In this document: positions 3,468-43,879 of the stretch, piece after piece
Layout: each line of letters opens with the position of its first letter
Numbering within the stretch: position 1 is the stretch's first letter
Made by a program: the position numbers and the translations under genes
Assembly (NCBI GenBank): GCA_964365185.1
Contig: CAYIOP010000002.1
Location: 2,684-66,683, forward strand
Direction: 5' to 3'
Source of the DNA: an uncultured Candidatus Saccharibacteria bacterium
GTDB lineage: Bacteria; Patescibacteriota; Minisyncoccia; UBA6257; 2-01-FULL-56-20
DNA: 64,000 bases
The notes under the pieces: model-generated
Seen by the model: only the letters and a program-made list of their open reading frames with translations
What the model was told of the DNA's origin: nothing
Databases searched by the model: none

Positions 3468-4049
3468 CTACTTACCCCGGCCGGATAAATTCTTCAAAGC
3501 CATTTTTAATTTATTCTCCAATGTGTCTTTTGAATCAAGTTTTGAAACTATATTTCTAACCTCATTTCTCTTATACCCCAAATCCACCAATACCTCAATC
3601 AAATCATTATTCGATTCTATTTTTGAAATCATATCTCCAGAACTAATGGTGCCAATTTTATTTCTTAATTCCAAAATAATTCTCTGGGCCAATTTTTCGC
3701 CTATCCCTCCGGCCTTAACCAAAAGGTCTCCTCTACCTTCCTTAATAGCTACTAAAACATCTTCCAAATGAGACGCCTCCATCACTGATCGAGCTGACTT
3801 CGGGCCAACTCCGCTAATAGAAATCAACAATTTAAAAAATTCCAGCTCTTTATCGCTGGAAAAACCATATAGTTCAATCCCACCTTCTTTGATATAAAGA
3901 TAGCAAAATATCGTAATTAAATCGCCTATCTTTACAGAGACCAGGAAATTTTTAAGGCAAAAGACCTGGAAACCGATTCCACCTACATCAACCACCAAAG
4001 AATTATCTCTGACTAAAACCGCTTTTCCGAATAAACTATAAATCACCAT
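3468..4049 (-). CDS. ruvA: Holliday junction DNA helicase RuvA
   Basis: N-terminal OB fold (VVDVGGIGFQV...LYGF) and HhH region LISISGVGPKSARSVM; ~190 aa, typical RuvA. Confidence 0.85.
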   Translation of the reverse strand: MVIYSLFGKAVLVRDNSLVVDVGGIGFQVFCLKNFLVSVKIGDLITIFCYLYIKEGGIELYGFSSDKELEFFKLLISISGVGPKSARSVMEASHLEDVLVAIKEGRGDLLVKAGGIGEKLAQRIILELRNKIGTISSGDMISKIESNNDLIEVLVDLGYKRNEVRNIVSKLDSKDTLENKLKMALKNLSGRGK

Positions 4050-4084
4050 CTTATTATAGCTAAATCAACAAATTAACCAAATTT

Positions 4085-4354
4085 AATGTTTAGCGCTAAA
4101 CATTCACTTTTCTTTTATCAGCCGATAAGTCGATAAAACCTACGTTTTTTGAAAAAACACTCAAAACAATGTTTAGCGCTAAACATCGATAATTAATCCA
4201 TAAACCGATAAGCCCGTAGAATCTAGATTTTTGCGAATTTTACTGAAAACAATGTTTAGCGCTAAACAATTTCTATCGTAGTAATCCGGCAAAATATACT
4301 ACTATATATAGTATTGCCGCATTTCCGTATATTAAGATGTTTAGCGCTAAACAT
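4085..4354. promoter_or_regulatory. array of four near-identical 18-20-bp perfect palindromes (A)ATGTTTAGCGCTAAACAT(T) with ~84-bp period, in the ruvA/yraN divergent intergenic region
   Basis: Copies at 4085-4104, 4169-4186, 4252-4268 (one mismatch) and 4337-4354. The sequence between copies is also partly repeated (ccgataag..aaaacaatg). Candidate operator array. Confidence 0.45.
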
Positions 4355-4387
4355 TAAACATTTCAAAAAATCTGCTAAAATTTAAAG

Positions 4388-4822
4388 GTGAATACAAAAA
4401 CAAGAGCTGAACATTTAACCATTGGAAAAATCGGCGAAAGCATTGCTCAAGAATACTTGCGTCACAAAGGGTATAGAATTATCGCCAAAAATTACCGTAA
4501 GCCCTGGGGAGAAATTGACTTAATCGCGAAATCCAAAGACCAAACTCTTGTTTTCTTCGAAATCAAAACCCTTAGGGATCGCGAATTAAGCCATCCATCA
4601 ATCATCCCAGAAGATAATCTCACTAATTCTAAACTTAAAAAACTCAAAAAAATTTGCGAAAGTTTTGCCAATTCAAATCCCCAGATCATAAACGAGAAAA
4701 GGGGATGGCAAATTGATCTTCTAACTCTGCTTTTAAAAAATCCTGAAAATCTAAATCAACCTAAGCTTTCGTTGACAGAAATAGAGAAATATTGTGAAAT
4801 AAAACATTATGAAAATATTTAG
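4388..4822 (+). CDS. yraN: YraN/UPF0102 family endonuclease-like protein
   Basis: GESIAQEYLRHKGYRIIAKNYRKPWGEIDLIA...LVFFEIKT matches the UPF0102 (PD-(D/E)xK) core. Confidence 0.7.
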   Translation: MNTKTRAEHLTIGKIGESIAQEYLRHKGYRIIAKNYRKPWGEIDLIAKSKDQTLVFFEIKTLRDRELSHPSIIPEDNLTNSKLKKLKKICESFANSNPQIINEKRGWQIDLLTLLLKNPENLNQPKLSLTEIEKYCEIKHYENI

Positions 4823-8845: not shown

Positions 8846-9961
8846 TTACGCCTTTAGTATCGGCATCAAAATATAAAAATAAGAGGCCTCATTAAGCGAT
8901 TTGATAAGCGAGGGCTTATTGTCTTGCTCGTTAACTCCCAAAAAAATTTCTTCACCTCCCAAAACTTTAAGTCCTTCCAGTAAATATCGCCAATTAAATC
9001 CCACCTCACCAAAATTTTTCTGAATTTTAGCTGGCAAAAAATACCGATTCTCGCCCACCTCACGATTAGCTGAAAAAATCTCAATCGCCTTTCCTCCTTC
9101 CGCTGATTTAAATCTAATTTCATTGGTCTGCCCGCTAAAAATTCCGGCCAGTTTTAAAGCATTTATTAATCCTTCTTTTTCCACTGTTATTTCCGCGTCA
9201 AATTTTTTCGGCAAAATACCAGAATAATCAGGAAAATTGCCGTCGGTTAGCCGAGAAATAAATTCCCAATTGCCGGTCTTAAATAAAACTTGGTTTTGAT
9301 CGTGATAAATAGAAAGTTTGTCCTGATCCTTTAAAATTCTTGCCAATTCTTGGGCCGCACGAAGTGGTATTAAAAAATTAAAATTTTGAGAATGATTAGA
9401 TTTGAATTGGTTAGATCCAATTGTCTTTTCCGCCAACCGGAAACTGTCCGTGCCGACTATTTTTAAATTATTTAAAGAAAAATTGAAAATAATATTGTTT
9501 AATTCGGTTCTCAAGTCCGAAAATTGAGTGGCTGCCAAAACCTGAGTCAGGGCTTCTTTAAAAATCCCGGCCTCAAGCTCTAAAAAGTCTTCCTCGTTTT
9601 TTATTTTAGGGATAATTGGAAAATCTTCCGCCGGAAAAACTTGAGTTAAGGCCTCGTAATTGTCGGTTTTGACCTCAAATTGACTGCCTTTTTTTTCTAA
9701 ATTCAATCTTTCGCTCTGAAGATTATTAATCAGATTTAAAAAAGTGCTTAGTGGAATATTTATTTTTCCTTTCTCAATTATTTTTCCAGAAAGATAATAG
9801 CTAATCGCCAACTCTAAATTAGTTGTAATTAATTTTATTTTATCAGCTTGAGCTTCAATTTGGACACATTTTAAAATCGGCAGATTTAAATTTTCTCCGC
9901 TAGCCCTTCCGACAATATCTAACCCTTCTTTTAAATTAGTTCGCATTGTTATCAACTTCAT
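8846..9961 (-). CDS. dnaN: DNA polymerase III beta subunit (sliding clamp)
   Basis: 371 aa starting MKLITMRTNLKEGLDIVGRA...ILKCVQIEAQADKIKLITTNLELAI; immediately downstream of dnaA. Confidence 0.85.
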   Translation of the reverse strand: MKLITMRTNLKEGLDIVGRASGENLNLPILKCVQIEAQADKIKLITTNLELAISYYLSGKIIEKGKINIPLSTFLNLINNLQSERLNLEKKGSQFEVKTDNYEALTQVFPAEDFPIIPKIKNEEDFLELEAGIFKEALTQVLAATQFSDLRTELNNIIFNFSLNNLKIVGTDSFRLAEKTIGSNQFKSNHSQNFNFLIPLRAAQELARILKDQDKLSIYHDQNQVLFKTGNWEFISRLTDGNFPDYSGILPKKFDAEITVEKEGLINALKLAGIFSGQTNEIRFKSAEGGKAIEIFSANREVGENRYFLPAKIQKNFGEVGFNWRYLLEGLKVLGGEEIFLGVNEQDNKPSLIKSLNEASYFYILMPILKA

Positions 9962-10122: not shown

Positions 10123-11490
10123 CTACTTATTATTAAGGAGCGACTCCTTAATCATGATAATTTTTTGATTAAACGGAGAATTCTTATTAATTTCCTGGTT
10201 TATTTTCTCAAAAGAGTGAATTACGGTTGTGTGGTCTCTTTTTAACTTTTCCCCAATGTATGGGTAGGACATCCTCAGGATTTCCCGAAGTAAGTACATT
10301 GCCACTTGTCTTGGCTCAACCATTTCCTTTTTTCGCGACCTACTGACCAAATCCGGCAATTGAATGGCATAAAAATCTGCCACCGCTTTTAAAATTTGAT
10401 CATCAGTAATTCGGCCAAAGAAATTTTGAGTTGTTTTTTCTATAATTTCTTCCACTACTTTCTTGTCGATCTCTCCACCCTTACTGTCTTGATAAAACAC
10501 AAGCTTATTTACCACCCCCTCTAATTCTCTAATATTTCTCTGGATAGAATGAGCCACTAAATCAATTACTCCCTCCGGCAATTGCCGATTTGCGGCTTGC
10601 AAACGATTTTTTATAATTGCCACCCTCATCTCGTAATCAGGATAACTAATATCCACCGTTAGCCCTCCGTCAAACCTCGACCTTAGCCGTTCTTCAAGGG
10701 TTGGGATTGATTGCGGCGGCCGGTCTGAAGAAATAATGATTTGTTTGTTGTTTTCGTAGAGCGCGTTAAAAGTATGAAAAAATTCTTCCTCGGTTTTTTC
10801 TTTGCCTCCGATAAATTGAATATCGTCGATAATGAGCACGTCGCAATCTCGGTATTTTTTCTTGATATCCTCCATTCTTTTATTGCGTATCGCCCACACC
10901 ACATCGCTGGTAAATTTCTCCGAAGAAACATATCTCGACCTAAGTTTGCCGCCATATTTAAATTTGATTTCATTGCCCAGCGCCTGAAGCAAATGGGTCT
11001 TACCCAGGCCCACTCCGCCATAAATAAAAAAAGGATTATATTTTGAACCCACCTCTTGGATAATCGCCAAGGCGGCCGCATGAGCCAATTCATTTGAGGA
11101 TCCCACCACAAAAGAATCTAAAGTATAACGAGGATTAAGATTTGTCTCGGGATCTACTCTTACTAAATCCAAACCCGCCTGGCTTTCTAGCCGGCCCATA
11201 TCCACGCTAATTTCCAAAGAAGATTTTTTGTTTAGCTTGGGTTCGTGATTAGTAACAATAAATTCCAGTTTTTTGGCTGAGCTATCAAAATTTCTTAAGA
11301 TTCCTAAGATATTTTTTTCGTATTTATTCTCCACCCATTCCTTAGCAAAGTTATTAGGTAGGGCAATATAAAAAATTCCCTCCTTCTGATCCACTAGTTG
11401 GCTATTCTTGAGCCAAGTCACAAAGTTAGCTCTTGAAAGCTGGATCTCCATCTCACTTAAAGTTTGTTGCCAAAGTTGATTTAGATCCAT
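10123..11490 (-). CDS. dnaA: chromosomal replication initiator protein DnaA
   Basis: AAA+ Walker A GGVGLGKTHLLQA, Walker B LIIDDIQF; sensor motifs; domain IV QVAMYLLRE...HTTV. Confidence 0.9.
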   Translation of the reverse strand: MDLNQLWQQTLSEMEIQLSRANFVTWLKNSQLVDQKEGIFYIALPNNFAKEWVENKYEKNILGILRNFDSSAKKLEFIVTNHEPKLNKKSSLEISVDMGRLESQAGLDLVRVDPETNLNPRYTLDSFVVGSSNELAHAAALAIIQEVGSKYNPFFIYGGVGLGKTHLLQALGNEIKFKYGGKLRSRYVSSEKFTSDVVWAIRNKRMEDIKKKYRDCDVLIIDDIQFIGGKEKTEEEFFHTFNALYENNKQIIISSDRPPQSIPTLEERLRSRFDGGLTVDISYPDYEMRVAIIKNRLQAANRQLPEGVIDLVAHSIQRNIRELEGVVNKLVFYQDSKGGEIDKKVVEEIIEKTTQNFFGRITDDQILKAVADFYAIQLPDLVSRSRKKEMVEPRQVAMYLLREILRMSYPYIGEKLKRDHTTVIHSFEKINQEINKNSPFNQKIIMIKESLLNNK

Positions 11491-14420: not shown

Positions 14421-15317
14421 TTAATTTTTGCAATTAGTTATATCGCTTGGCAACAGGGGCAAACAAACACTGCTACTACAGGTATCAATTATATCGCTAC
14501 AACTATTTGAATTACTGCAAAGCAATTTGTACCCGGTCGGCTGACTTGAATCGTTTTGAGTGCAGCCAAATTTAGTTGCTCCGCCGCCTCCGCCAGTGGG
14601 GCCGCCCAAGCTGTAGCAACTGCCACCATTGCAATAGCCGCCCCCGTTATTTTCCATCGATTCATTGCATGATTGAGGGTTTAACCCAGCCGGACAATTG
14701 CCGTCTGGTATTATGCAATTTCCAGCCGAACAAACTTGTCCTAGTCCGCTGCAATTAGCCGACTCAAAACAACTTCCCGGCTCAACGCAGATATTATTAG
14801 GCGCGCAAATCAACCCTTCGTTGCAAGGGATAGCGGGCGTGCTGGTGCTCTGGATGCATATTCCTCCGACCGTGCCCGGCGGAATGCCCGGCAAAATTAC
14901 ATTTTTCCCCGTAATTTTTTTTAGTGTCGGAAGTTTTAGCTGGGTTAATTTTGGATTAATCGTGTTTAATACAACAAACGCGCCCGCCAAAAGCAAAAGT
15001 CCCAAAAGCGCCTGCTTGATTCGGTCTTTAGCATCTCCCTTGCGCGAAGGATTATCTGCCGAGAGCGTGTATTCAATACCTCCCCAAATCACCACCACAA
15101 AAGCCAGTAGCCCGCCCATCAGCAAGGCGTATTGATAAAGATTGCTGATGAGCCCAGCTGGGTCAGGATTTTTTTGGCTGGCTGGAATTGAGCCGGGAAT
15201 ATTGGGATTAATTTGCGCCGGATCAATCGTTGTTTCATCTGCCTGCGCCAAAGAAATCATCATCCCTCCTACTAATATTATCCCCGCCAATATCAAAAAA
15301 AATTTATAGTGCCTCAT
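14421..15317 (-). CDS. candidate T4SS pilin (TrbC/VirB2-like topology) with a long Cys/Gly-rich C-terminal extension
   Basis: Signal peptide, then two hydrophobic helices separated by a short charged loop (LLMGGLLAFVVVIWGGIEYTLSADNPSRKGDAKDRIKQALLGLLLLAGAFVVL). This is followed by ~150 aa rich in Cys, Gly and Ser. Confidence 0.35.
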   Translation of the reverse strand: MRHYKFFLILAGIILVGGMMISLAQADETTIDPAQINPNIPGSIPASQKNPDPAGLISNLYQYALLMGGLLAFVVVIWGGIEYTLSADNPSRKGDAKDRIKQALLGLLLLAGAFVVLNTINPKLTQLKLPTLKKITGKNVILPGIPPGTVGGICIQSTSTPAIPCNEGLICAPNNICVEPGSCFESANCSGLGQVCSAGNCIIPDGNCPAGLNPQSCNESMENNGGGYCNGGSCYSLGGPTGGGGGATKFGCTQNDSSQPTGYKLLCSNSNSCSDIIDTCSSSVCLPLLPSDITNCKN

Positions 15318-15322
15318 TAATT

Positions 15323-16033
15323 TTATTTTACAAAAGTTAATTTAATTTCCCGCGACGCCCGTTCGGTAAATTTTCTGGGATTTGAGACATTTAAAGTTGT
15401 TTTTAATTCAAAATTCGGCGCCACCTCTTGGTTTAAAACAACACTTAATTGATTTGATTTTTCGTTTTTTGCCGCTGGTCGGTCGTTAACTTTCCAAGAA
15501 AATTCAAGCTCCCCTTCGTTCTGAACGTTAAAAAAATACGGCTTAGCTAAAATTTGAATTCCTCGGTTTGAAAATTTATTTTCAAAAAACGGAGCAATTA
15601 GCGTCACCTCTGGCCTCACCGAGGGAATTAAAATGTTTTTAATAAGCATCCGCCCCTTATAATCTAGAATTTTAATTCTTAATTCCTGTTCTCCTGTCCC
15701 CACTACTCTAAAAGATGTCTTTTGGATGCCCACTCCGGTTTTAATCAAATCATCATTTAAATACCAGTAAATTTCGTTTTTAGAAAGGTTAACCAATCTT
15801 CCCGCATCAATTATTTCAAAGGCCGCTGAAATCAGCGAAGAATCAGTCGGCAAAATCTTGCCGGTAAATTCCGCTGGCGCGTAAGTATTAGCTCTCCAGG
15901 TGATTAAAAAATCTGGCTCCTTGGTCTGCGCCCGGGCTGTCAGGCCAAAAATTATTGCCAGCACCATTCCTAAAAACAGAATTATTACCCCGAATTTTAT
16001 CAGTTGTGGCCTATTGAATCCTATAAAAATCAT
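15323..16033 (-). CDS. hypothetical membrane-anchored protein (T4SS-like cluster)
   Basis: 236 aa, single N-terminal TM, beta-rich periplasmic part. Confidence 0.4.
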   Translation of the reverse strand: MIFIGFNRPQLIKFGVIILFLGMVLAIIFGLTARAQTKEPDFLITWRANTYAPAEFTGKILPTDSSLISAAFEIIDAGRLVNLSKNEIYWYLNDDLIKTGVGIQKTSFRVVGTGEQELRIKILDYKGRMLIKNILIPSVRPEVTLIAPFFENKFSNRGIQILAKPYFFNVQNEGELEFSWKVNDRPAAKNEKSNQLSVVLNQEVAPNFELKTTLNVSNPRKFTERASREIKLTFVK

Positions 16034-16219
16034 TTTAACTTTTTAATTATACCAGCTTTCTTCTTTGTTTCTAAACTGATAATTATCCACCATACTCCCT
16101 TCTGTTTTTGAAAATTGGGCATTGCTTACCCGCCGAAATCTTGATGAAGGCGGGATAATTGAAAATTTCTATCGTTTCTCCGTTGTATTACCACTGTATT
16201 TCTATGGCCTCTCTATTTT

Positions 16220-16834
16220 CTACGCCGTCATCCTGTAATCATTTTCTTCTTCGTCATCTTCGGGTTTTGCCTGCGGCTCCGGCAATTTTCGGGTAATATC
16301 CATCACTTTTTCTATTGGCTCTTTTTCTATACCAAAGGCCTCTTCTGAAACCTTAGGGGTTCCTGTTTCTTTTAACCCTCCTTCAGTTTTTGAAACAGCT
16401 TGGCCCGCTTCAGAACCACGAGCTGAACCCTTTGCTAATCCCTCGCTCGGAGCGCCTCCTCTTGGAGTTTGAACGCTTTTTTTAGGCATTCCCTTTTTGC
16501 CCCCAGCGCTTTGGCTAATTTGTACGGCTTTTGCCGCCGCGGATTCTGGATGTCTGTCGGCGTATACTGTCATCCAAAAACCAATTGTGAGGAGTGGCAG
16601 ATCTCCCACCCAAGGGATAAGTTCTGTCAGCCAAGACACTCCCATTCGGCCAAATCCTAAGCCCCTAAACCACAAATATATAACTATTATCGACGCCAGG
16701 ATGTCTCCTAGCCAGAAGTCATCTAAACCAAAAAAAATCAAAATAAGTTCAATCCCGTCAATTAAAATTAAATATATCGAAATCAGAACAATCTCTACTG
16801 TCTTAAGCTTTGGCTTCGGTTTCTCTTCATCCAT
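16220..16834 (-). CDS. hypothetical polytopic membrane protein with acidic C-terminus (T4SS-like cluster)
   Basis: 204 aa, 3 predicted TM segments. Its start codon is embedded in the left TIR of repeat copy 2. Confidence 0.4.
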   Translation of the reverse strand: MDEEKPKPKLKTVEIVLISIYLILIDGIELILIFFGLDDFWLGDILASIIVIYLWFRGLGFGRMGVSWLTELIPWVGDLPLLTIGFWMTVYADRHPESAAAKAVQISQSAGGKKGMPKKSVQTPRGGAPSEGLAKGSARGSEAGQAVSKTEGGLKETGTPKVSEEAFGIEKEPIEKVMDITRKLPEPQAKPEDDEEENDYRMTA

Positions 16835-16964
16835 GCTCCGTAGGAAATTAAATATTTTTTGTTAATTTGTAAACGACGTTTTCATATTATCTTACTTTGT
16901 CATAATTCTGCTAAATTATATTAGCTCAAAAATATTTTATTTTTCGTTATTTCCTACGGGGCAT
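16832..16964. repeat. 133-bp TIR element, copy 2 (CATGCTCCGTAGGAAAT ... ATTTCCTACGGGGCAT)
   Basis: Same length and ends as 3323-3455. The internal sequence is AT-rich with shared blocks (ttttgtaaa, gttttcat). Confidence 0.55.
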
Positions 16965-16978
16965 ATTTTATCTATAAT

Positions 16979-18736
16979 CTACGATTTTCCCTCTAAAATC
17001 TGTTGTGGATTCGTGGTGATAATTTTATCCTCAAAATAGGAAGCGATAATTTGAATCGAAACGTGTCTTCGGCCGGCAAAAAATAATCCTGTTCCCACTT
17101 CGGCTGTTAAAAGTAAACTTTTTTCCGCTTCAGTTAAACCAAAAGCCTTAGCCACGATATCAATGGTAGCCGGCGATTGTTTTAAAAGAATCTGAATTGA
17201 GGAGTTGGTGATAATCGGCCGGCCGTAAGGCGAGCGCAAAAAGTCCTCCACGTCTTGAGTAATAGTCGAGACCCCTAAGTAATATTTTCGAGCCCGTTTC
17301 ACCAGTCCAAAAAGGAAAATGGCGCTGTCTTCATATTTCATCATCCACCACGCCTCGTCGATAATTAAAAGCCGTTTTTTGAGTTGAGCGCGGGTTAAAT
17401 TCCAAATAAAATTTAAAATTATATACATCGCAATTGGCCGGAGCTCTTCTTCTAGATCGCGAATCGAAAAAACAATCAATCGGTTATTAACATTAATGTT
17501 GGTCGGCTGGTTAACAAATCCCGAAAAGCTACCTTTAGTGTATTTATAAAGTCGCTCCGCAATTCCTTTGCCCCCTTCCAAATTCCGTAAAACCGTCTCT
17601 AAATCTTCAAGCAGCGGTGCCTTCGCTCCGGTAAAATCCTCCCCAGCCACAATTTCGCGCGAAGCATAGGTTTCGGTAATTGCTCTATCCAAAAGCGCGT
17701 CTTCCACCGCCGTCACTTTGCCAAGCATTAGTTTAACCAGTCCTGCCATATTCACGATGTGAGACCGCAGAACATCCGATGCCGTCTCTCCGTCCGGAAT
17801 AGTTGGCACGTCAAACGGGTTAATGTGTTCGTCCGACGAGAGCGAGATATTAAAGAAACTTCCTCCAAAGGCCTCACATAACCTCTGGTATTCGTTTTCT
17901 GGGTCAATCACAATTACATCCACTCCGGTCATTAAGTAGCGGATAATCTCCAGTTTGGTAGTGTAGGATTTGCCTGAACCGGACTTGGCAAAAACTACCT
18001 GATTGGCGTTTTCAAGCGAAAACCGGTCAAAAATAATCAAATTATTATTGTGCCGGTTGATGCCGTACATAATGCCCTGGCTGGAGTTTAAGTCCTCAGA
18101 AACAAACGGAAAAAAAGAAGATACTGGCCCAGAATTCATTGGTGATTTCACATCGATTTTATCTTCTACGAGCGGGAAAATGGATTGCAACCCTTCAAGT
18201 TGTTGGAAAAGAGCGGGCTTAATATAAATCAGTTTCGCGTCCAAGATATTTACAACATGGCTTTCTAGTTTTGAGAGTTCCTCTAGGGTGTCTCCATAGA
18301 TGGCAATATAAACTCCCAAATCAAATAATTTTTCCTGGGCTTGTTGCAGAGAATCTCTTAAGGATTCCACGTCTTGAAGAGCGGTCTCTAGCATCGGGTC
18401 TCTCACTAAGCCCTTTTCTTGTTGGTCATTGATTTGGGATTCTATTTGAGCTGATTTTTTTCTTAAATTTTTAAGGGCAATGCCGGTGTCGATTGGATTT
18501 ATAAAAAGTGAGACGTCAAAAATGTTAGGCAAATTAATAAAGGGCTCAAACCAGCCGGTCGAGAGATAGCGTGGATAAGAAAAAACAAAAAACGTCTTGA
18601 CGAATTTGTCGCCGATTTTAAGGTAATTTGAATTCACCTGAACGCCGGCCGGCGAAATTATTTTTTTTGTTTCTTTAAAATTATTTTCCATATCTTTACA
18701 CTTCCTTTCCCGGAATATTTTGAAGTTCTTTTTCAA
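16979..18736 (-). CDS. VirB4/TrbE-family conjugal transfer ATPase, C-terminal ATPase portion
   Basis: Walker A FAKSGSGKSYTTK, Walker B LLIIDEAWWMM; TrbE/VirB4 C-terminal domain organisation. Confidence 0.75.
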   Translation of the reverse strand: MKKNFKIFRERKCKDMENNFKETKKIISPAGVQVNSNYLKIGDKFVKTFFVFSYPRYLSTGWFEPFINLPNIFDVSLFINPIDTGIALKNLRKKSAQIESQINDQQEKGLVRDPMLETALQDVESLRDSLQQAQEKLFDLGVYIAIYGDTLEELSKLESHVVNILDAKLIYIKPALFQQLEGLQSIFPLVEDKIDVKSPMNSGPVSSFFPFVSEDLNSSQGIMYGINRHNNNLIIFDRFSLENANQVVFAKSGSGKSYTTKLEIIRYLMTGVDVIVIDPENEYQRLCEAFGGSFFNISLSSDEHINPFDVPTIPDGETASDVLRSHIVNMAGLVKLMLGKVTAVEDALLDRAITETYASREIVAGEDFTGAKAPLLEDLETVLRNLEGGKGIAERLYKYTKGSFSGFVNQPTNINVNNRLIVFSIRDLEEELRPIAMYIILNFIWNLTRAQLKKRLLIIDEAWWMMKYEDSAIFLFGLVKRARKYYLGVSTITQDVEDFLRSPYGRPIITNSSIQILLKQSPATIDIVAKAFGLTEAEKSLLLTAEVGTGLFFAGRRHVSIQIIASYFEDKIITTNPQQILEGKS

Positions 18737-19376
18737 TCGTTTCCGGATTATAGAAATTATAAAAAAGCTCCACTAAGGCCTGGTCGTCTAAAAGAATCGC
18801 TTCTAGTCCGATTACGCTTAAGCCCTCAATAATTTGGTTTGATCGCTGGTTAATCTTGCTGACGTTTTCTTTAAACTCCAATTCTTTATTTTGTTCTTCT
18901 TGTTTTGGTTCCGGCGCTTGCTTTTTAAAAAACGGAATAAATTTAGTGATTCCCGCCACACTTTCTTTGCTTGGCAGATTAATTAAATTTAATGGCACCA
19001 CCACCAAAAATGTCTTCTCCATAATAGCGTTTTCATGAACAAACCCGCTGATAAATTGTTGGTATTCTCCAATTTGATTTCGGAGAAGGGGCGACGGTTC
19101 ATCGGCTTTTCTCGCTTCCAAGTTATTTAAATATCTTTCGATATTCACTTTTCTCGAATGAATGATGATTTGAATCGGAAAATCCAAGCTGTTTAAAAAA
19201 TTTTGATAACCCGACGAGATAATATCCATTTCACTCTCCGACATTAAAGCCGTATTTAACCCCGCCACCATCACTACCTGTCGCAGTCCTCCGTCTTTTA
19301 ATAGCACGACACTCTCTTTAATCTCCTCAATCTCCACCAAATCCTGAGTATTGGCTAGTTGTTGTTTTAGGGCCAT
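18696..19376 (-). CDS. probable N-terminal portion of VirB4 (separate frame, 41-nt overlap with the ATPase ORF)
   Basis: 226 aa. The two ORFs together total ~811 aa, the size of a full VirB4. They share strand, are adjacent and differ in frame by 1 nt. Confidence 0.4.
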   Translation of the reverse strand: MALKQQLANTQDLVEIEEIKESVVLLKDGGLRQVVMVAGLNTALMSESEMDIISSGYQNFLNSLDFPIQIIIHSRKVNIERYLNNLEARKADEPSPLLRNQIGEYQQFISGFVHENAIMEKTFLVVVPLNLINLPSKESVAGITKFIPFFKKQAPEPKQEEQNKELEFKENVSKINQRSNQIIEGLSVIGLEAILLDDQALVELFYNFYNPETIEKELQNIPGKEV

Positions 19377-19447: not shown

Positions 19448-19924
19448 AGAGCTAAAAACGAAAAACTAAAAACGCAAAGTAAAGAATTAAGGGTTACCCT
19501 TTCTCTTTTTAAGGGTTAAGATGCTGGAGCCAAGAATATTAGCGATTTCAGTTGTTTCTTGTATCAATAATTCAACCTCTTCTAGGTTAGCTTTCTTAGC
19601 ATCTCTAAGTAAATACAGCCAAAACTTGCTCTCGTTGGCGGATTTTAAAGCATAACTAAAAAAATTAGTGAAGTCCTTTCTCGTGCTTCCAGCTTGAGCT
19701 TCAATAATATTCGCGCCTATACTAGTAGCGCTTCTCAGTAATTGCTTCGCGATTATTTGAACCGCTAAATCTTTTTTATCGAGGTTATCAATAAATTTTA
19801 TAATCTTCAAAGCCAATGAATAAGATTTCTTTTTTGAATCCATTCTTATTTTATATCTTTACACTTTTCGTTTTTAGCTTCTAATTAAATTCTACTTTAC
19901 GTTTTTCGCTTTTCGTTTTTAGCT
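19448..19924. mobile_element. IVS-like cassette: four-helix-bundle gene bracketed by ~30-bp imperfect inverted repeats
   Basis: Left IR agctaaaaacgaaaaactaaaaacgcaaagtaaag (19451-19484). Right IR ctttacgtttttcgcttttcgtttttagct (19896-19924). An extra direct copy cttttcgtttttagct lies at 19864-19880. Confidence 0.4.
19487..19843 (-). CDS. four-helix-bundle protein (23S rRNA intervening-sequence protein family)
   Basis: LAVQIIAKQLLRSATSIGANIIEAQAGSTRKDFTNFFSYALKSANESKFWL is the characteristic family core. Confidence 0.8.
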   Translation of the reverse strand: MDSKKKSYSLALKIIKFIDNLDKKDLAVQIIAKQLLRSATSIGANIIEAQAGSTRKDFTNFFSYALKSANESKFWLYLLRDAKKANLEEVELLIQETTEIANILGSSILTLKKRKGNP

Positions 19925-32719: not shown

Positions 32720-34246
32720 TCACACTTCCTCCCTCAGCCGATAACTAAATGCCTCCGCCAAATGATTCTCTGAAACTTTTTCCTCTCCGCTTAAATCCGC
32801 GATGGTTCTGGCTACTTTTAACAACCGGAAATATCCTCGAGGCGAAAGCCGCGTTTCATCCAAGCTTTTTAAAAACTTTTCCGCGCCGGTCTCAAAATTT
32901 ATCATCTCTTCGGTTTGTTTAGCGCTCATCTCGCCGTTGTTCTTAATTTTAAGTTTTTGAAATCTTTCTTTTTGAATCTCTCTCGCATTCTGGATTTTGG
33001 TTTTGATTTCCGGGCTTGTTGGTTTTAAATTTCTCTTCTCTCGTAATTCCAGAATTTTTATTCTTGGCACTTTAATTTGTAAATCAATCCGGTCGAGTAG
33101 CGGCCCAGAAATCTTTTTTTGATAACGAATCACTTCGTAAGCTGTGCACCGACATTCTTTTTCTTCATCGCCGTAAAATCCGCAAGGACAAGGGTTCATC
33201 GCGGCCACGAGAGAAAACTTAGCCGGGAATTCCAAACTGTTTTTGGCGCGAGAAATTTGCACTCGGCCCGACTCCATTGGTCCGCGCAACGCCTCCAAGA
33301 TATTTTTCGGAAACTCCGGCAGCTCGTCTAAAAAAAGCACGCCTCGATGAGCCAAGCTTATTTCTCCTGGCCTAGGATAGGTTCCGCCGCCAACCACCGC
33401 GATGAGTGATGCGGTCTGATGAGGCGTTCGAAAGGGGCGGGCCTTAATTAACCCTCCGGGATTAAGTCCCGCCGCGCTGTAAATTTTTGTCACCTCAATG
33501 GCTTCCTCATGGGTTAACTCTGGTAAAATACCCACCATCGCTTGAGCCAGCAAGCTCTTGCCCACGCCCGGCGGCCCAATCATCAGCAAGTTATGCCCAC
33601 CAGCTGCCGCCAACGTAATGGCTCGCTTCGCGTTTTCTTGGGATTTAATTTCCGAAAAATCAGTTCCTAAATACTCGGTTTTTGCCTCTGGATTAAAAAT
33701 TGCCGGCTCGATCTTTCTTTTTTCTTCTAAAAATTCAATTGCCTCTGATAAATTATTGAGCGGAATAATTTTTATTCCTGAAACCACCGCCGCTTCGTTG
33801 GCGTTTTCTGCTGGCAAAAAAACATAGTGGCATTTTTTTTCCTTAGCCATCTGAGCAATATTAAGAGCTCCGGCTATTGGCCGCAGCCGGCCGTCGAGCG
33901 CTAATTCACCCAAGAAAATTTTATCTTTTGTTTCAAATCCTTTCATTTGTCCGGTTGAGAGCAGATATCCGAGCGCAATCGCTAAATCATACTGGGAGCC
34001 GGCTTTCTTCACGTCCGCCGGCGCCAAATTCACCGTGATTTTCCTATTTTCTCTGTTTGGCGGCTTAACCCCCGTGTTTTTTAGAGCTGAATTAACTCGC
34101 TCCTTAGCTTCATTTAAGGCCTTGTCTGCTAAGCCCACTATATTAAAAGCATGAAGGCCGACATTTAAGTCGACCTCAATTTCAATCAATCTTGCGTTAA
34201 TGCCTTCTAATTCAGCTGAATAAATCCTCGCTAGATTTTTAAGCAT
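32720..34246 (-). CDS. comM: YifB/ComM family Mg-chelatase-like AAA+ ATPase
   Basis: N-terminal Lon-like domain (GLHAFNIVGLADKALNEAKERV), Walker A MIGPPGVGKSLLA, ChlI-type C-terminal region. Confidence 0.85.
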   Translation of the reverse strand: MLKNLARIYSAELEGINARLIEIEVDLNVGLHAFNIVGLADKALNEAKERVNSALKNTGVKPPNRENRKITVNLAPADVKKAGSQYDLAIALGYLLSTGQMKGFETKDKIFLGELALDGRLRPIAGALNIAQMAKEKKCHYVFLPAENANEAAVVSGIKIIPLNNLSEAIEFLEEKRKIEPAIFNPEAKTEYLGTDFSEIKSQENAKRAITLAAAGGHNLLMIGPPGVGKSLLAQAMVGILPELTHEEAIEVTKIYSAAGLNPGGLIKARPFRTPHQTASLIAVVGGGTYPRPGEISLAHRGVLFLDELPEFPKNILEALRGPMESGRVQISRAKNSLEFPAKFSLVAAMNPCPCGFYGDEEKECRCTAYEVIRYQKKISGPLLDRIDLQIKVPRIKILELREKRNLKPTSPEIKTKIQNAREIQKERFQKLKIKNNGEMSAKQTEEMINFETGAEKFLKSLDETRLSPRGYFRLLKVARTIADLSGEEKVSENHLAEAFSYRLREEV

Positions 34247-34257
34247 TTCCTCCTCTC

Positions 34258-34596
34258 TTATTTACTTGTTTTAAGTTTACACTCTTGGCAAAGCTCTGAT
34301 TCCGGAATTAAATCTAAGATATTTTCCGAAATTTCTCCCTCGCAATTAAGACACTTCCCATAACTTCCACTTTTTATTCGCTTCAGTGCCCCCTCAATTT
34401 CTTGTAGCCGTTTTTTAAGTTCATTGGCTACCGCTATCCTGTTTCCTCTTTCTTCAACTTCATCCGATTCTTCATCTCCGCCTTCTATGTCGCTGCCAAA
34501 ATCAACTCCTTTTTCATCCTCGGCTATTTCTTTCTCTAGTTTTTCTTTCTCCTGCTCCAAAATTATTCTATATTTTTCTGTATTGGTGTTTTTCAT
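34258..34596 (-). CDS. DksA/TraR-family C4-type zinc-finger protein
   Basis: C-terminal CLNCEGEI...CQECK four-Cys finger after a coiled-coil, 112 aa. Confidence 0.65.
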   Translation of the reverse strand: MKNTNTEKYRIILEQEKEKLEKEIAEDEKGVDFGSDIEGGDEESDEVEERGNRIAVANELKKRLQEIEGALKRIKSGSYGKCLNCEGEISENILDLIPESELCQECKLKTSK

Positions 34597-37092: not shown

Positions 37093-38622
37093 TTAAATTA
37101 TTTCTCTCAAAAGGCTTCTGCCGGTCATCTCATCCGGCTTATTAACACCCATTAATTCCAAAATTGTCGGTGCCACATCCGAGAGCACTCCGATTGTCTC
37201 CGAATTAAAGCTTTGCCAATTAATAAACCTTTTATTTTTAAATTCTTTAGCCACTAAATAAAAAGGCACCGGGTTGGGGTCATGTTGGGTCTCTGCTTCG
37301 CCCGTCAAAGGGTTCATCATTTGTTCCACATTGCCATGGTCTGAAGTAATAATAATTGTTGACTCTGTTTGAATCCCGGTTTTAATCACTCTCCCAATTT
37401 GAGTGTCGATAATTTTTACCGCTTCCAAAGCCGCTTGGTAATTACCAGTATGGCCAATAGTGTCTGGGTTAGCATAGTTGGCTAAAATAAAATCAAAACC
37501 TCTGGCTTCAAGCGATTGAATTATGCGGTCAGTGATTTCTCCAGCCCTTAACTCTGGGTGTTCATCAACGTGCGGCACTTTAATTGAAGGAATAAAAACC
37601 CGGTATTCTTTTGGAAAAGGTTGTTCTATGTAGCCGTTAAAAAAATAAGTTACGTGAGCGTACTTGTAACTCTCGGAAATTCGAAGTTGGGTTTTGTCTG
37701 CCTCGCTCAAAATTCTACCTAAGGGATATTTAATGTCTTCCGGTGGAAACGCCACCGGCACATCAAATTGGTCTTCATATTTAGTCATGGTGGCGATATA
37801 AAAATTCTGGAATTTTTGAGTCGGGAATTTATCAAAATCTTTTAAAATAAACGATTCGCTTATCTGCCGAATGCTATCTTCTCTAAAGTTGAAGAAAATT
37901 ATTGATTCTCCGTCTTTAATTTGGCCATCTTTTTTGAGCGCTAAAGGCGGCAGAAATTCTTCATTTAATTTTTTTTGATAGGTTTCCTGAATAATCGGAC
38001 TCACCTCTTCTGTGATTTCTCGAGCGGGCGAGACCATCGTTTCATAAGCCCTCTCGGTGAGTTTCCAGTTTTTTTCCCTATCCATTGCGTAATAACGGCC
38101 CACTAAAGTCGATAATTTTTCTTTTGGAATTTTATCCAGCGCTTTTTCCAGCCGGAAAGGAGTGGCATCTTTGCCGTCCGAAAAAAGATGGAGCTTAACT
38201 TCCACTCCTTCCTGTTCTCCCATCCGAATTAAAGCCAAGAGGTGATCTAGGGATGAGTGCACTGTCCCTTCGGTTAAAAGTCCAATCAAGTTAACTGCTG
38301 ATTGGTTTTTTTTGGCAAAATCAAAAGCTCCTTTTAAAGCCGGGTTTTTAAAAAAACCTTCATCTTTAATAGAGATAGAAATTCTCGGAAAATATTGATA
38401 AATTACCTTACCAGACCCAATCGTCAAATGTCCCACCTCGCTATTGCCGATTTCTCCCCAAGGTAAACCGACGCTGATTCCCGAGGCCTGCAAACTGGTA
38501 ACCGGAAAGTTTTCCTCGAGCCACCTAAAGGTTTCTGGTTTAACCACGTGAATAGGATTGGATTGGTTTTTCTGCCCTAAGCCCCAACCATCAAGAATGA
38601 TGAGCAAAACAGTTTTTTTCAT
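37093..38622 (-). CDS. gpmI: 2,3-bisphosphoglycerate-independent phosphoglycerate mutase
   Basis: ILDGWG N-terminal motif, GHLTIGSG..., 509 aa, typical iPGM. Confidence 0.9.
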   Translation of the reverse strand: MKKTVLLIILDGWGLGQKNQSNPIHVVKPETFRWLEENFPVTSLQASGISVGLPWGEIGNSEVGHLTIGSGKVIYQYFPRISISIKDEGFFKNPALKGAFDFAKKNQSAVNLIGLLTEGTVHSSLDHLLALIRMGEQEGVEVKLHLFSDGKDATPFRLEKALDKIPKEKLSTLVGRYYAMDREKNWKLTERAYETMVSPAREITEEVSPIIQETYQKKLNEEFLPPLALKKDGQIKDGESIIFFNFREDSIRQISESFILKDFDKFPTQKFQNFYIATMTKYEDQFDVPVAFPPEDIKYPLGRILSEADKTQLRISESYKYAHVTYFFNGYIEQPFPKEYRVFIPSIKVPHVDEHPELRAGEITDRIIQSLEARGFDFILANYANPDTIGHTGNYQAALEAVKIIDTQIGRVIKTGIQTESTIIITSDHGNVEQMMNPLTGEAETQHDPNPVPFYLVAKEFKNKRFINWQSFNSETIGVLSDVAPTILELMGVNKPDEMTGRSLLREII

Positions 38623-38908
38623 GTATTTTGTGAGTAACTCTAATTTTAAAAGATTTTTGGCCGGTTGACTAACTTTAAAATCAGCCCTATACTTTATAGG
38701 TTCCTTTTAAGCGATTTTAATTTCCAGATTGAAGAATGACGGTTAATTCTAGCTTTATTAAATTCTTGAAAAAGCAATAATTCCCTCTTTATTATCAGGG
38801 CGCTTTTTACGTTTAAAAGGTGACACTAACTAAAAAGTCACAAATTTTTTATTCCTAAAAAATTCAAACACTTATCTAAGTTAATGAAGAATTTAGGGAA
38901 TTTATTAC

Positions 38909-40435
38909 ATGTCCGAATTCTTACCCCTTCTTATCGGGGGCGCCTTGGTTCTAGGAGGAGCGGCGGGTTATTTTATTCGCCACATCTTTTTTGCTCGTAA
39001 ATCAAGTTCTATCGAGCATAAAATTATCTCTAAACTTGGAGAAGCCGAAGAGCGGTCAAAAAAAATTATTTTAGAAGCCGAAAGTAAGGCCGTCGATCTT
39101 TTAGGCGACGTTCGGCGTGAAGGTCGCGAACAAAAAACTAAACTTGATAGTTTAGAAGAAAGGATTTTGCACCGAGAGGAAATTTTAGACAAAAAATTAG
39201 TTGCCCTAAGCAACGACGAAAATTCTTTAAAAGCTCAAAAAGAAGAAATCAAGAAAAAAGAATTAGAAATTGAGAATGTCAAAAACGATTTGGAAAGTCA
39301 ACTTGAGAAAACTAGCGGCCTAACTCGAGATGAAGCCCTTAAGCTTTTAACTGGAGAAATTAAAGAAAAATATAGCCGTGATTTAGCCGATTCCATTCAA
39401 AAACTAGAAAAAGAACGAAAAGAAGAAATCGAAAAGAAATCCAGCGAGATTATCGCTTCGAGCTTGGAACGCTATGCCCGATCTCAGGTGGCCGAACTCA
39501 CCACCACCTCTTTTTCTTTGGCGGACGAAGAATTAAAAGGAAAAATTATTGGTCGGGAAGGCAGAAATATCCGAGCGCTCGAAAGAGCCACCGGCGTTGA
39601 ATTTGTAATTGATGAAACTCCAGATAGTGTGGTGATTTCTTCTTTCGATCCCATTCGAAGAGAGGTTGCTCGCATGGCTCTTGAAAAACTAATCAAAGAT
39701 GGCCGCATTCAACCCGCTAAAATTGAAGAAAAAGTTGAAGAAGCCAAACAAGAACTTAATAAACGCATTATGGAAATTGGCGAATCCGCCACTCAGGAAG
39801 TTGGTATCTATGATTTACCCAAAGAAATTATCCAGCTTTTAGGTCGCCTGCATTTTAGAACTAGTTATGGCCAAAACGTCCTCCTCCATTCTATAGAAAT
39901 GTCTTATCTAGCCGGCATGATGGCCTCTGAACTGGGTTTAAATGTAGAAGTCGCTAAAAAAGGCGCCCTGCTTCACGATATAGGCAAAGCTATTGACCAC
40001 GAAGTTGAGGGCACTCACATTGAACTTGGCCGTAAAATTTTGAAAAAATACGGCGTTAACGACTTAGTGATTCAAGCTATGCAATCGCATCATGAAGATT
40101 ATCCCTACGCGATTCCCGAAGCGTACTTAGTCACCACTGCTGATGTTTTGTCGGGCGCGAGGCCTGGCGCCAGGCGTGATTCTCTTGAACATTATATTAA
40201 ACGTCTCGGTGACTTGGAAAAAATTGCCTCTGAATTTCCGGGTGTCAAAACCTCTTACGCTGTTTCCGCTGGTCGGGAACTTAGGGTTTTTGTTGTTCCG
40301 GAAAAAATAGATGACTTTCGGGCGTTGGAGATGGCTCGAGAAATTGCCAATAAGATTCAATCTGAGTTAAAATATCCTGGTGAGATTAAAGTCGTGGTGA
40401 TTCGCGAAATGAGAGCGGTTGAGTATGCCAAGTAA
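38909..40435 (+). CDS. rny: ribonuclease Y
   Basis: N-terminal TM, coiled-coil, KH domain (GKIIGREGRNIRALE), HD domain (LLHDIGKAIDHE...H). Confidence 0.9.
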   Translation: MSEFLPLLIGGALVLGGAAGYFIRHIFFARKSSSIEHKIISKLGEAEERSKKIILEAESKAVDLLGDVRREGREQKTKLDSLEERILHREEILDKKLVALSNDENSLKAQKEEIKKKELEIENVKNDLESQLEKTSGLTRDEALKLLTGEIKEKYSRDLADSIQKLEKERKEEIEKKSSEIIASSLERYARSQVAELTTTSFSLADEELKGKIIGREGRNIRALERATGVEFVIDETPDSVVISSFDPIRREVARMALEKLIKDGRIQPAKIEEKVEEAKQELNKRIMEIGESATQEVGIYDLPKEIIQLLGRLHFRTSYGQNVLLHSIEMSYLAGMMASELGLNVEVAKKGALLHDIGKAIDHEVEGTHIELGRKILKKYGVNDLVIQAMQSHHEDYPYAIPEAYLVTTADVLSGARPGARRDSLEHYIKRLGDLEKIASEFPGVKTSYAVSAGRELRVFVVPEKIDDFRALEMAREIANKIQSELKYPGEIKVVVIREMRAVEYAK

Positions 40436-40442
40436 TTAGATT

Positions 40443-40529
40443 ATAGGTGATAGGTTTTAGAATTTTGGCGCTAAAAAGCAAAATAGTGGAATTTTTCTAA
40501 CACCTAACATCTAACACCTAACCTCTATG
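40443..40529. repeat. heptamer-tract repeat pair in inverted orientation (ataggtgatagg ... ctaacacctaacatctaacacctaacc) immediately upstream of the 40527 start codon
   Basis: Same CACCTAA family as the other heptamer tracts. Confidence 0.4.
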
Positions 40530-41930
40530 TTCCTAAAACTCTCCAAATTTTTTATTTATCTTTCTGTTTTTAGCGTCGTTATTGTTTTGACCTCGACTTT
40601 CTTTCCGTTTATCGGTGGCAAGTATTATTTTTTCCGCGTTTGCGTTGAATTAGCTCTTATTTTCTTTTTACTGTTTTGGGCTTTTGAGGCTCAAGGAAGA
40701 GAAATTCTAGACCGGTTCCGTAAGATTTCTCGAGAGCCACTTTTTATCGCCACCTCCCTTTTTGTTTTGTTTTATCTCTTAGCTTCAATTTTTGCCTATA
40801 ATTCTCACGCTGCTTTCTGGTCCAATTATGAGCGAGGCGAAGGAGGGTTTCAAATGTTCCATTATTACATTTTTTTTGTTTTATTACTTTTGATTCTTAA
40901 AGAACCAAAAGAATGGAAAAATCTTTTTATTTCTTCGGTCGTGGCAGCCGTTTCAATGATCGGCTACGGCCTCTTAGCCAATCTTGGTCTTGTTTCCCAG
41001 TTTATTGATCCATTCATGGGGGAACCTCCTTCCGGGTTTTTAAAACGACTCATTCAGCCCCGATTTCAAGGTTCTTTGGGCAATCCCGCTTATGTCGCCC
41101 CTTATTTAATGTTTGCTATGTTCTATGGCGCCTATCTTTGGATAAGCTCTAAGTGGCGAAAAAATTGGCGACGACATTTATTTTTTGGGGCTCTTATTCT
41201 TTTTTTCTTATCCTTTCTTATACTGTCTCAAACCCGAGGAGCTTTTTTAGGATTAGCCATCGCTATTTTGATTGGGCTAATTTATCTTATCATTAGTTTT
41301 CCGGCCATTAGGAAAAAAACTCTTATAATTCTAGCTGTTTTAATTTTTATTGGAGGCCTTTTAATTGGTTCTCGCCATAATTCTTTTGTTAAAAATCTTC
41401 CTGGCGGGCGATTTTTTGAAATCTTTGATCTCGGTGTTAAAACTGATACGGTTCAAACCCGTTTTTGGACTTGGGGCTCGGCTTGGGCCAGTTTTAAGGA
41501 ACGCCCAATTTTGGGTTGGGGTCCTGAAAATTTTAGTGCGGCTTTTGATAAGTATTTTGATATCCGCCATTATTCTCCAGGCAAAAATTCCGAAACGTGG
41601 TTCGACCGAGCTCACAGCGTTATCTTTGATTACTTAGCTGAAACCGGACTTTTAGGATTTTTAAGCTACCTGAGCATTTTTGTAATTTTCTACTGGAGAG
41701 TTTTTTCTCGCCCCAAAAATAAATCTGAAATGAGAGCTAACTCTCTAGAGCCATCAGGCGATTTAAATTTTAGAAATAATTTTCTTCTTCAAACTCTTTT
41801 CGTTATCCTTCCGATTGGTTATTTGGTTCAAGGCCTAGTTCTTTTCGATGTCTTACCAATTTATGTAAACCTTTTTATCTTTTTAGCGTTCAGCGTTTAC
41901 TTATTTACTTTCTATGAATCAAAATCTTAA
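40527..41930 (+). CDS. O-antigen ligase/polymerase-like polytopic membrane protein
   Basis: ~12 TM; TRGAFLGLAIAILIGL and a large periplasmic loop typical of the Wzy_C/O-antigen-ligase family. Confidence 0.45.
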   Translation: MFLKLSKFFIYLSVFSVVIVLTSTFFPFIGGKYYFFRVCVELALIFFLLFWAFEAQGREILDRFRKISREPLFIATSLFVLFYLLASIFAYNSHAAFWSNYERGEGGFQMFHYYIFFVLLLLILKEPKEWKNLFISSVVAAVSMIGYGLLANLGLVSQFIDPFMGEPPSGFLKRLIQPRFQGSLGNPAYVAPYLMFAMFYGAYLWISSKWRKNWRRHLFFGALILFFLSFLILSQTRGAFLGLAIAILIGLIYLIISFPAIRKKTLIILAVLIFIGGLLIGSRHNSFVKNLPGGRFFEIFDLGVKTDTVQTRFWTWGSAWASFKERPILGWGPENFSAAFDKYFDIRHYSPGKNSETWFDRAHSVIFDYLAETGLLGFLSYLSIFVIFYWRVFSRPKNKSEMRANSLEPSGDLNFRNNFLLQTLFVILPIGYLVQGLVLFDVLPIYVNLFIFLAFSVYLFTFYESKS

Positions 41931-42543: not shown

Positions 42544-42676
42544 AAAAAATATTAGGTTTGGCGAAAATGTATCTTTTATCCTCTCGTTTTTTATTGTGTC
42601 ATTTTGCTATCGCATCGAATTTTATGGCAGCGCGTTTTGCCTTGACTTTAAAGCGGTATAGTGATAAAAATTTACC

Positions 42677-43699: not shown

Positions 43700-43742
43700 A
43701 AGAGCTTACAGCTTTTCTGTCGAGTAAAAAATCAATCCGGAA

Positions 43743-43879
43743 TAGCGCTGTTCGGAAATCATATTATACTTAATTTTTTTCTACCGGTTCTCGGAGAGAT
43801 TTTCTGATTTAGACCCTTTGGCTAGGAGGAAAATTTCTTCAAGAACCTACGGTTATTGGGACTTTTCGAACAGCACTAT
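43743..43879. repeat. conserved hairpin element copy B (loop gatttagaccctttggctaggagg) nested in the outer inverted repeat gctgttcggaaa / tttcgaacagc
   Basis: Shares the loop TTGGCTAGGA(G/A)GAAAAT and surrounding sequence with 34640-34740. Confidence 0.4.

Follow-up and report, generated by a model that had tools for sequence, protein, structure and literature searches.

A conserved array of parS-like palindromes attached to yraN in Saccharibacteria and other Candidate Phyla Radiation bacteria

What protein reads a series of identical palindromes set between two divergent genes, and on behalf of which gene? The question is raised by a 64,000-nucleotide stretch of the genome of an uncultured Candidatus Saccharibacteria bacterium (GenBank assembly GCA_964365185.1, contig CAYIOP010000002.1, forward-strand positions 2,684 to 66,683), the whole of which is referred to below as the window, and in which four copies of one palindrome lie between ruvA and yraN. 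A preliminary description, which had located the array correctly between these two genes, took it for a candidate repressor operator associated with ruvA. In this study, the sites were found to be conserved in Candidate Phyla Radiation (CPR) bacteria, to be tightly linked to yraN and to form a continuum with canonical parS. Judged from sequence, and with a probability of roughly 55%, the array is a cluster of parS variants that would be bound by a ParB-family protein and that also overlaps the promoter and start region of yraN. No prior description of the array was found in the literature searched for the motif and for parS or ParB in CPR bacteria.

The 16-bp palindrome TGTTTAGCGCTAAACA is present in exactly four copies in the whole 64-kb window, with no further copy elsewhere in it. 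The sites and the two genes that flank them are as follows:

3468..4049, minus strand: ruvA (Pfam RuvA_N, HHH_5 and RuvA_C), the divergent neighbor, found in this position in the window's clade only
4087..4102: site 1, TGTTTAGCGCTAAACA, within the perfect 20-mer at 4085-4104; 38 bp from the ruvA start codon at 4049
4170..4185: site 2, exact 16-bp core
4253..4268: site 3, exact 16-bp core
4338..4353: site 4, proximal to yraN, exact 16-bp core; ends 34 nt before the yraN GTG start at 4388
4388..4822, plus strand: yraN (Pfam UPF0102, a PD-(D/E)XK nuclease), the gene to which the array is consistently attached

The preliminary description had reported four perfect 20-bp palindromes starting at 4085, 4169, 4252 and 4337 with a spacing of 84±1 bp. 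The four copies are real as 16-bp cores, but the 20-mer AATGTTTAGCGCTAAACATT is perfect at 4085 only, each other copy being off by one outermost base; the 20-mers begin at 4085, 4168, 4251 and 4336, and the cores are spaced by 83, 83 and 85 bp. No match to the 20-mer with up to three mismatches appeared in 100 dinucleotide-preserving shuffles, and a search of the 64 kb with the relaxed form TGTTTnnCGnnAAACA, allowing at most one mismatch, returned the same four places only. A degenerate tandem unit of ~84 bp had also been proposed: the spacers are indeed partly similar, but no tandem repeat is called at the array by Tandem Repeats Finder. The four cores are individually preserved, as the spacers have diverged while the copies stay exact. 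The earlier proposal in its general form, an array of dyad-symmetric sites such as dimeric helix-turn-helix proteins bind, is supported by the conservation of the array.

The chromosomal parS consensus is TGTTNCACGTGNAACA (PMC7383237), and the window motif agrees with it at 12 of 16 positions, keeping the outer arms and the central CG (TGTTT..CG..AAACA) and carrying the central hexamer AGCGCT instead of CACGTG. All 12 positions that are invariant among the CPR sites (TGTTT, CG and AAACA) are parS positions. This match had been missed when the motif was said to fit no known class of LexA box. The window motif does not match the 16-bp consensus strictly, and the array is accordingly classed as a parS variant and not as a canonical member; as for parS, the sites are few and clustered irrespective of coding context, lying at the array only within the 64 kb. 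Exact canonical parS arrays (TGTTTCACGTGAAACA) are found at the same position upstream of yraN in relatives, among loci collected without regard to the motif (retrieved loci are designated by L numbers). Locus L131 carries nine exact canonical copies and one CACGCG variant, L169 carries seven exact canonical copies among 11 sites, and canonical parS also lies upstream of yraN in L105, L107 and L137. Arrays with AGCGCT, as in the window, are found in L095, L096, L102, L112 and L170, and a GTCGAC array in L111, with other loci being mixed. In several cases different half-site triplets are combined within a single array, as in CAC with GCC (L123, L145), AGC with GTC (L170, L040, L043) and AGC with CAC (L072, L060), and the AGCGCT and CACGTG forms therefore belong to one continuous site family. 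No canonical parS was found in the window at up to two mismatches, so that the variant appears to replace the canonical form rather than to coexist with it.

The distribution of the array was examined by an exact-match scan of one genome per GTDB species, from which 93 stretches were retrieved. The array is present at orthologous loci in other genomes, and the multi-copy loci all come from genomes titled as Patescibacteria-type lineages or from unclassified metagenome-assembled genomes (MAGs), with the exception of one GC-rich MAG. The titles include Paceibacterota, Saccharibacteria, Liptonbacteria, Parcubacteria and Minisyncoccia, with GC contents from 26 to 60%. Titled non-CPR genomes (Sphingomonas, Pedobacter and others) contain single copies, the exceptions being a few two-site loci in MAGs titled Deltaproteobacteria (L042), Chloroflexota (L064) and Agrococcus (L073). 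When the flanking open reading frames of 32 multi-copy loci were clustered, a YraN homolog was found to adjoin the array in 25 of them, with the array directly 5' of yraN, and RuvA did so in 10 only. On the other side of the array, other lineages have a dksA/traR-like zinc-finger gene followed by comM, and nusA lies downstream of yraN; further neighbors include genes for a HAD hydrolase, folD, uppS and others. Downstream of yraN in the window are yebC and ruvC, and the comM pair lies at a distance:

32720..34246, minus strand: comM, with its partner dksA/traR-like zinc-finger gene at 34258..34596

This pair is 28 kb from the array and is without a site, indicating that the array tracks yraN and neither comM nor ruvA.

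These counts bear directly on the proposal of the preliminary description, an SOS-like or LexA-type operator controlling a damage-inducible ruvA. A site does lie 38 bp upstream of ruvA and the neighbors are recombination genes, but ruvA is the partner at less than half as many loci as yraN, and the window contains no further copy in front of a repair gene, the surroundings of the uvrD-like gene and of comM included (recA and lexA are not within the window). The motif is, to our knowledge, unlike known LexA boxes, and control of ruvA by an SOS-type repressor is barely credible. The suggestion that an 84-bp period would align the sites on one face of the helix does not extend beyond a few genomes either, as the 80-85-bp period is limited to the window's clade (L004, L023, L055, L065); in other arrays the spacing ranges from 27 to more than 200 bp, and a common helical phase is absent.

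The attachment to yraN was also evident in loci sampled without reference to the motif. Eighty metagenomic yraN loci were chosen by protein similarity alone, using a 7-sequence alignment as query, and their YraN proteins are 38-60% identical to that of the window. At least one TGTTTnnCGnnAAACA site (at most one mismatch) was present within 700 bp upstream in 39 of the 80 loci and at least two sites in 22, against a chance expectation which we estimate at ~0.002 per locus. Of 96 exact TGTTTnnCGnnAAACA sites in the 427 kb of these 80 loci, 95 fall in the interval from -1000 to +600 relative to the yraN start. In 30 of 40 loci the end of the proximal site is 10-120 nt ahead of the conserved yraN G13 codon, and in several relatives this site overlaps the ATG. 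The arrays comprise 2-12 copies at variable spacing and sometimes continue into or past yraN (L131, L107, L061, L081), and some sites lie within the coding sequence of yraN or folD. Isolated half-sites (TGTTTnnC) are enriched 7-fold upstream of yraN (5.6/kb versus 0.77/kb), an enrichment which also holds in 48 loci without a full site, and the half-sites are arranged as inverted, everted (GATAAACA-N4-TGTTTATC) or direct (TGTAAAACAaTGTGAAACA) repeats.

Sites inside folD were also encountered in the exact-match scan, where the exact 16-mer occupies the same codons (LFSAK[H/Q]) in L025 (2362), L046 (2587) and L058 (2541), in genomes of 28 to 53% GC; in L169, folD directly follows yraN. The folD sites may reflect selection at the DNA level, or may be ascertained on a conserved peptide since the scan picked exact matches. 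One exact 16-mer lies inside uvrC (L052, 972). In L024, from a Saccharibacteria MAG, a LAGLIDADG homing-endonuclease gene (651-1085) is inserted between yraN and the palindrome array.

A ParB-type centromere complex is favored as the reader of the array because of the parS match, the architecture of the array, the tolerance for half-sites, the proximity to dnaA, the lack of canonical parS in the window, and the presence of ParA and ParB in a cultivated Saccharibacterium. In Southlakia epibionticum, ParA and ParB (SEML1_0183 and SEML1_0184) were scored as essential or growth-defective (PMC10633639 supplement). The replication genes near the window array are:

8846..9961, minus strand: dnaN
10123..11490, minus strand: dnaA

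The array lies 4.5-6 kb from this pair, and the same arrangement is found in L004, L048, L055 and L085. In the proposed mechanism, a ParB-family helix-turn-helix protein would occupy each palindrome as a dimer, the simplest candidate being the chromosomal ParB, which would be encoded elsewhere in the genome, and the cluster would nucleate a partition or SMC-loading complex in the dnaA-proximal region. From the strict attachment of the array to the 5' end of yraN we infer that the same complex would also act on yraN, probably by limiting or timing its expression; an action there is probable, given that the site nearest yraN coincides with or immediately precedes its start and that another lies 38 bp from the ruvA start.

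The likeness to chromosomal parS extends beyond the sequence of the site, a 16-bp palindrome with identical arms TGTTT/AAACA and a central CG, to its presence in multiple copies near dnaA. Half-sites are also enriched here, and the ParB protein of P. aeruginosa binds half-parS sites (PMC10419367). The window array differs from known parS in being one tandem intergenic cluster instead of a set of dispersed sites, in its fixed position at the 5' end of yraN, in the absence of parAB nearby, and in its hexamer AGCGCT, which varies within and between lineages far beyond what is usual for parS.

In its layout the array is closer to plasmid centromeres, in which each tandem unit contains a single palindrome bound by a ParB-family protein, as in sopC and the OB sites of plasmid RK2. 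The sopC locus of the F plasmid consists of 12 units of 43 bp, each with a 16-bp palindrome bound by SopB. The RK2 operator OB is TTTAGCGGCTAAA and its ligand KorB is a ParB-family protein (PMC11790492). The half-site TTTAGC of OB is the same as that in the window motif, and KorB combines partition with promoter silencing, as is proposed here for the binder of the window array. The window sites are not OB sites, as OB is 13 bp with a central base, TTTAGC(G/C)GCTAAA, while the window core is the 12-bp TTTAGCGCTAAA extended to 16-20 bp. Unlike the plasmid arrays, the window array is chromosomal, with no plasmid or phage match and no korB- or sopB-like gene adjacent.

Two further systems are informative. 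In S. pneumoniae, the ParB complex at an origin-proximal parS influences the adjacent competence operon comCDE (PMC4488948); that case involves a single parS, spreading and read-through, and a regulatory operon as target, whereas the present one would involve an array on the promoter or start of a recombination-nuclease gene. The specificity of ParB-family proteins can switch at inner half-site positions via few residues, as between ParB and Noc with its site NBS (TATTTCCCGGGAAATA) (PMC7383237). A Noc-site-like palindrome, GTTTCCC.GGGAAAC, is found upstream of yraN in one CPR lineage (L108). NBS sites are otherwise unlike those of the window in being scattered genome-wide and different in sequence, and Noc is confined to Firmicutes.

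Several observations weigh against a ParB-type complex. Searches by tblastn with Spo0J and Soj detected no parA or parB in the 64-kb window, the adjoining 5 kb on its left (L174) or ~130 CPR loci. Regular expressions for the GERR-type ParB motif, and tblastn with the exact B. subtilis Spo0J and Soj sequences, returned nothing in CPR DNA, the one match being an archaeal chance locus (L039). A large-database search with Spo0J returned Bacillus proteins only and no CPR ParB. A pure centromere has no reason to stay with one gene through many rearrangements, yet the array stays with yraN, and parS is normally very conserved, while the hexamer varies freely here, more like a fast-evolving pair of regulator and operator. 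GC skew does not switch at the array in the window, and no consistent switch was seen across 40 loci. The palindrome upstream of yraN is, moreover, lineage-specific across CPR. In some related lineages (L119, L121, L122, L132-L134, L148, L149, L159, L164, L166) it is replaced by one or two copies of a different, 17-bp palindrome, TGTGTAAAAATTACACA, which in L119, L121, L122 and L166 are ~43 bp apart near the yraN start; in other lineages TGTTATACTGTATAACA or TGTTGGTTGACCAACA is present upstream of yraN. Finally, the window motif is also close to the operator of a protein outside the ParB family, the repressor KorA.

The main alternative is one in which the array is the operator of a dedicated, non-ParB repressor, a small helix-turn-helix dimer encoded elsewhere that would keep yraN and the divergent gene tightly off, the likeness to parS being convergent or due to a shared type of helix-turn-helix. 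The strict linkage to yraN and the constrained position of the proximal site relative to the G13 codon and the ATG are consistent with such a repressor, as the array is placed at the promoter or start, where an operator would be, and lineage-specific palindromes, including forms unlike parS, are expected of co-evolving regulator-operator pairs. Palindromes of 16-20 bp with a central CG are typical of LacI-type operators, and 5-N6-5 palindromes of those of the CRP/FNR type. A nickase such as YraN could also be toxic, which would justify tight repression. The KorA operator OA of RK2 is TGTTTAGCTAAACA (PMC11790492), a classical operator of a dimeric helix-turn-helix repressor, with the half-site TGTTTAG identical to that in the window; the window motif equals it with two extra central bases. 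The window half-sites are therefore 2 bp further apart (16 versus 14 bp), implying a different dimer geometry, and OA sites are single and not in arrays, with no KorA-like gene found for the window array. Nor did the genes flanking the arrays in more than 100 loci include a conserved candidate regulator. For an operator, as many as 12 identical high-information sites over ~1 kb, some of them inside or downstream of yraN, would be excessive, the half-sites in several geometries imply a flexible binder, and exact canonical parS arrays occupy the same position in relatives. Taken together, these points make a dedicated repressor unlikely, though it deserves serious consideration.

The ParB-type complex can be reconciled with the varying hexamer if the drift occurred because all sites share one tandem array. 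It is possible, and proposed here only tentatively, that the CPR centromere has been condensed into one tandem array of parS sites joined to the promoter and start of yraN, in which the central hexamer (CACGTG, AGCGCT, GTCGAC, GCCGGC and others) has drifted together with ParB between lineages. If so, these arrays would provide a series of naturally occurring changes in ParB specificity, and expression of a recombination nuclease would be coupled to the origin domain's state.

The inseparability of array and gene across lineages also recalls centromere-binding-protein genes that lie next to their sites, raising the idea that YraN itself recognizes the palindromes, whether by binding, for autoregulation or by nicking its own upstream array. 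Recognition of palindromes by dimers, and rapid switching of specificity, are common among PD-(D/E)XK enzymes such as restriction endonucleases. However, the CPR YraN is an ordinary single-domain UPF0102 protein without an extra DNA-binding domain, YraN is monomeric with relaxed specificity, and the match to parS would have to be a coincidence, so that recognition by YraN is improbable. Natural transformation has been described as requiring YraN, a PD-(D/E)XK nickase, as well as the ComM helicase (10.1101/2024.02.06.579203). In Southlakia epibionticum, a UPF0102/YraN domain is fused to RNase HII in SEML1_0521 (PMC10633639 supplement), which suggests that YraN has housekeeping links to replication and repair beyond transformation.

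The sequence between and beside the sites carries further repeated elements:

4122..4143, plus strand: spacer motif M4, copy 1, CCGATAAGTCGATAAAACCTAC
4205..4226, plus strand: spacer motif M4, copy 2, CCGATAAGCCCGTAGAATCTAG
4287..4319: inverted repeat in spacer 3, CGGCAAAATATACTA...TAGTATTGCCG
4343..4379, plus strand: duplicate of the yraN 5' end, 76% identical to 4403-4439
4398..4413: degenerate fifth site in the first yraN codons, 9/16 overall, with the right half GCTGAACA at 7/8

Spacers 1 and 2 are alike only in part, their common motif M4 being CCGATAAG..GTA[AG]AA[CT]CTA (the second part also written as GTAAAACCTA). M4 (CCGATAAGCCCGTAAAACCTAC) occurs once per spacer in arrays of the same clade (L004, L014, L023, L055, L065, L085) and distal to the arrays in L001, L027, L031 and L081. 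An element similar to the inverted repeat of spacer 3 lies at the same position in L019 and L085, and this repeat is related to a multi-copy motif, M3, (A/T)CCGGCAA(T), that is distal to the arrays in many other lineages. The M3 motif is present there in many direct and inverted copies, including a 20-bp palindrome AATCCGGCAATTGCCGGATT, at 300-700 bp upstream of yraN (L001, L027, L031, L043, L060, L061, L081, L083, L086, L118, L126, L143, L145), and a single everted palindrome, TTGATAAACA-N4-TGTTTATCAA, is also found distal to the arrays upstream of yraN. Several repeated motifs thus make up the region upstream of yraN. At the position of the degenerate fifth site, an intact site contains the yraN ATG in L055, L065, L004, L081 and L085, where the protein starts MFSAKH. 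The duplication of 4403-4439 at 4343-4379 indicates that the array grew by duplicating a unit that included the yraN start.

Given the 6-kb distance to dnaA-dnaN and the divergence of the flanking genes from the array, the region could alternatively be part of the replication origin, with repeats of the DnaA type or an origin-organizing kind and with yraN simply flanking oriC. The direct repeats TGTAAAACAaTGTGAAACA seen upstream of yraN in other lineages agree at 8 of 9 positions with TTWTNCACA, the relaxed DnaA-box consensus, and M4 contains AAACCTAC, which resembles the DnaA box of Thermotoga. Canonical DnaA boxes are not clustered at the array, though: TGTTTAGCG matches the DnaA box at only 5 of 9 positions, boxes of the TGTTTCACA type are at chance level in the window, and the lack of a skew switch noted above, both in the window and across the 40 loci, counts against an origin as well. 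An origin at the array is consequently very improbable. In the window, cumulative GC skew reaches its minimum at about 38-44 kb and not at the array. This minimum (38500-44000) coincides with a switch in gene strand (37093-38622 on the minus strand, RNase Y at 38909-40435 on the plus strand) ~27 kb from dnaA; either the origin is not beside dnaA in this genome, or the skew is unreliable here.

The palindromes could also function as hairpins, either in RNA, as structures in a 5' untranslated region that sequester the yraN start, or in incoming or replicating single-stranded DNA. The sequence is predicted to fold very stably (z = -8.7), in some relatives the ATG falls inside the palindrome, and the flanks beyond the 16-mer are complementary at 2.85 of 6 positions compared with 2.31 +/- 0.08 in shuffled pairings, 14 of 159 sites reaching 6/6. 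The fold score is trivial, however, since the palindrome copies pair with each other, and does not point to an RNA; the symmetry of the flanks could come from template-switch mutation at palindromes. Half-site positions 6-7 vary independently, without compensating change. Against Rfam, the window gave no match at the gathering threshold, and a search of 3900-4600 at E <= 1 yielded nothing beyond sub-threshold plant-miRNA hairpin models. A hairpin function is extremely improbable. No tRNA or tmRNA was found in the window, and a promoter and terminator scan of 3900-4500 returned nothing, no sigma-70 consensus promoter being placeable for ruvA or yraN.

The regular alternation of repeat and spacer recalls a CRISPR-like or TIGR-like guide array, or the remnant of a mobile element, the outcome that the preliminary description had named as contrary to its own proposal. 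TIGR arrays are carried by CPR genomes (PMC12045711). The repeat of the window is only 16-20 bp, the spacers share motifs, box C/D-type elements are absent, and no cas or tas gene or domain was found among the neighbors. A mobile origin is opposed by the same chromosomal position in many species and by the absence of any plasmid or phage match, the IMG/VR matches being limited to four single-copy ones. The chance that the array is of either kind is close to negligible.

The remaining observations concern other parts of the window and a genome outside CPR. A cluster at 14421-19376 encodes a type IV secretion system pilin-like protein (14421-15317), a TraG/VirB4-like P-loop ATPase (16979-18736) and others without a Pfam match, and is probably a patescibacterial type IV secretion or DNA-uptake-like system; it is followed by the gene for a 23S rRNA intervening-sequence protein (19487-19843). 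In a MAG of 68% GC labelled Planctomycetota (binchicken_co19_649), eight exact copies of the AT-rich 16-mer are found at L063 (4533-6866; also L007, 3424, and L056, 208). Four of the eight lie in a ~112-bp tandem unit, each within TATACTGTTTAGCGCTAAACAGCATG, which comprises a -10-like box, the palindrome and an ATG. No yraN or parB was detected near these copies, which may be an unrelated operator family or may be read by the same binder family outside CPR.

The identity of the protein that reads the array is of interest because of what either of the leading explanations would mean. Sites for parS are among the most conserved DNA sites in bacteria, and work on changes in their specificity has to date centered mainly on the ParB/Noc pair. 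If the palindromes are ParB sites, CPR genomes would offer dozens of natural parS variants with matching ParB proteins, as well as a simple centromere marker for thousands of uncultured genomes, and the locus would be the second case, after pneumococcus, of a partition complex touching transformation genes. If a dedicated repressor reads them, the array would be the first conserved cis-regulatory element of yraN. Only recently was YraN shown to be the nuclease that acts on the D-loop in natural transformation, and CPR bacteria are believed to rely on the uptake of DNA.

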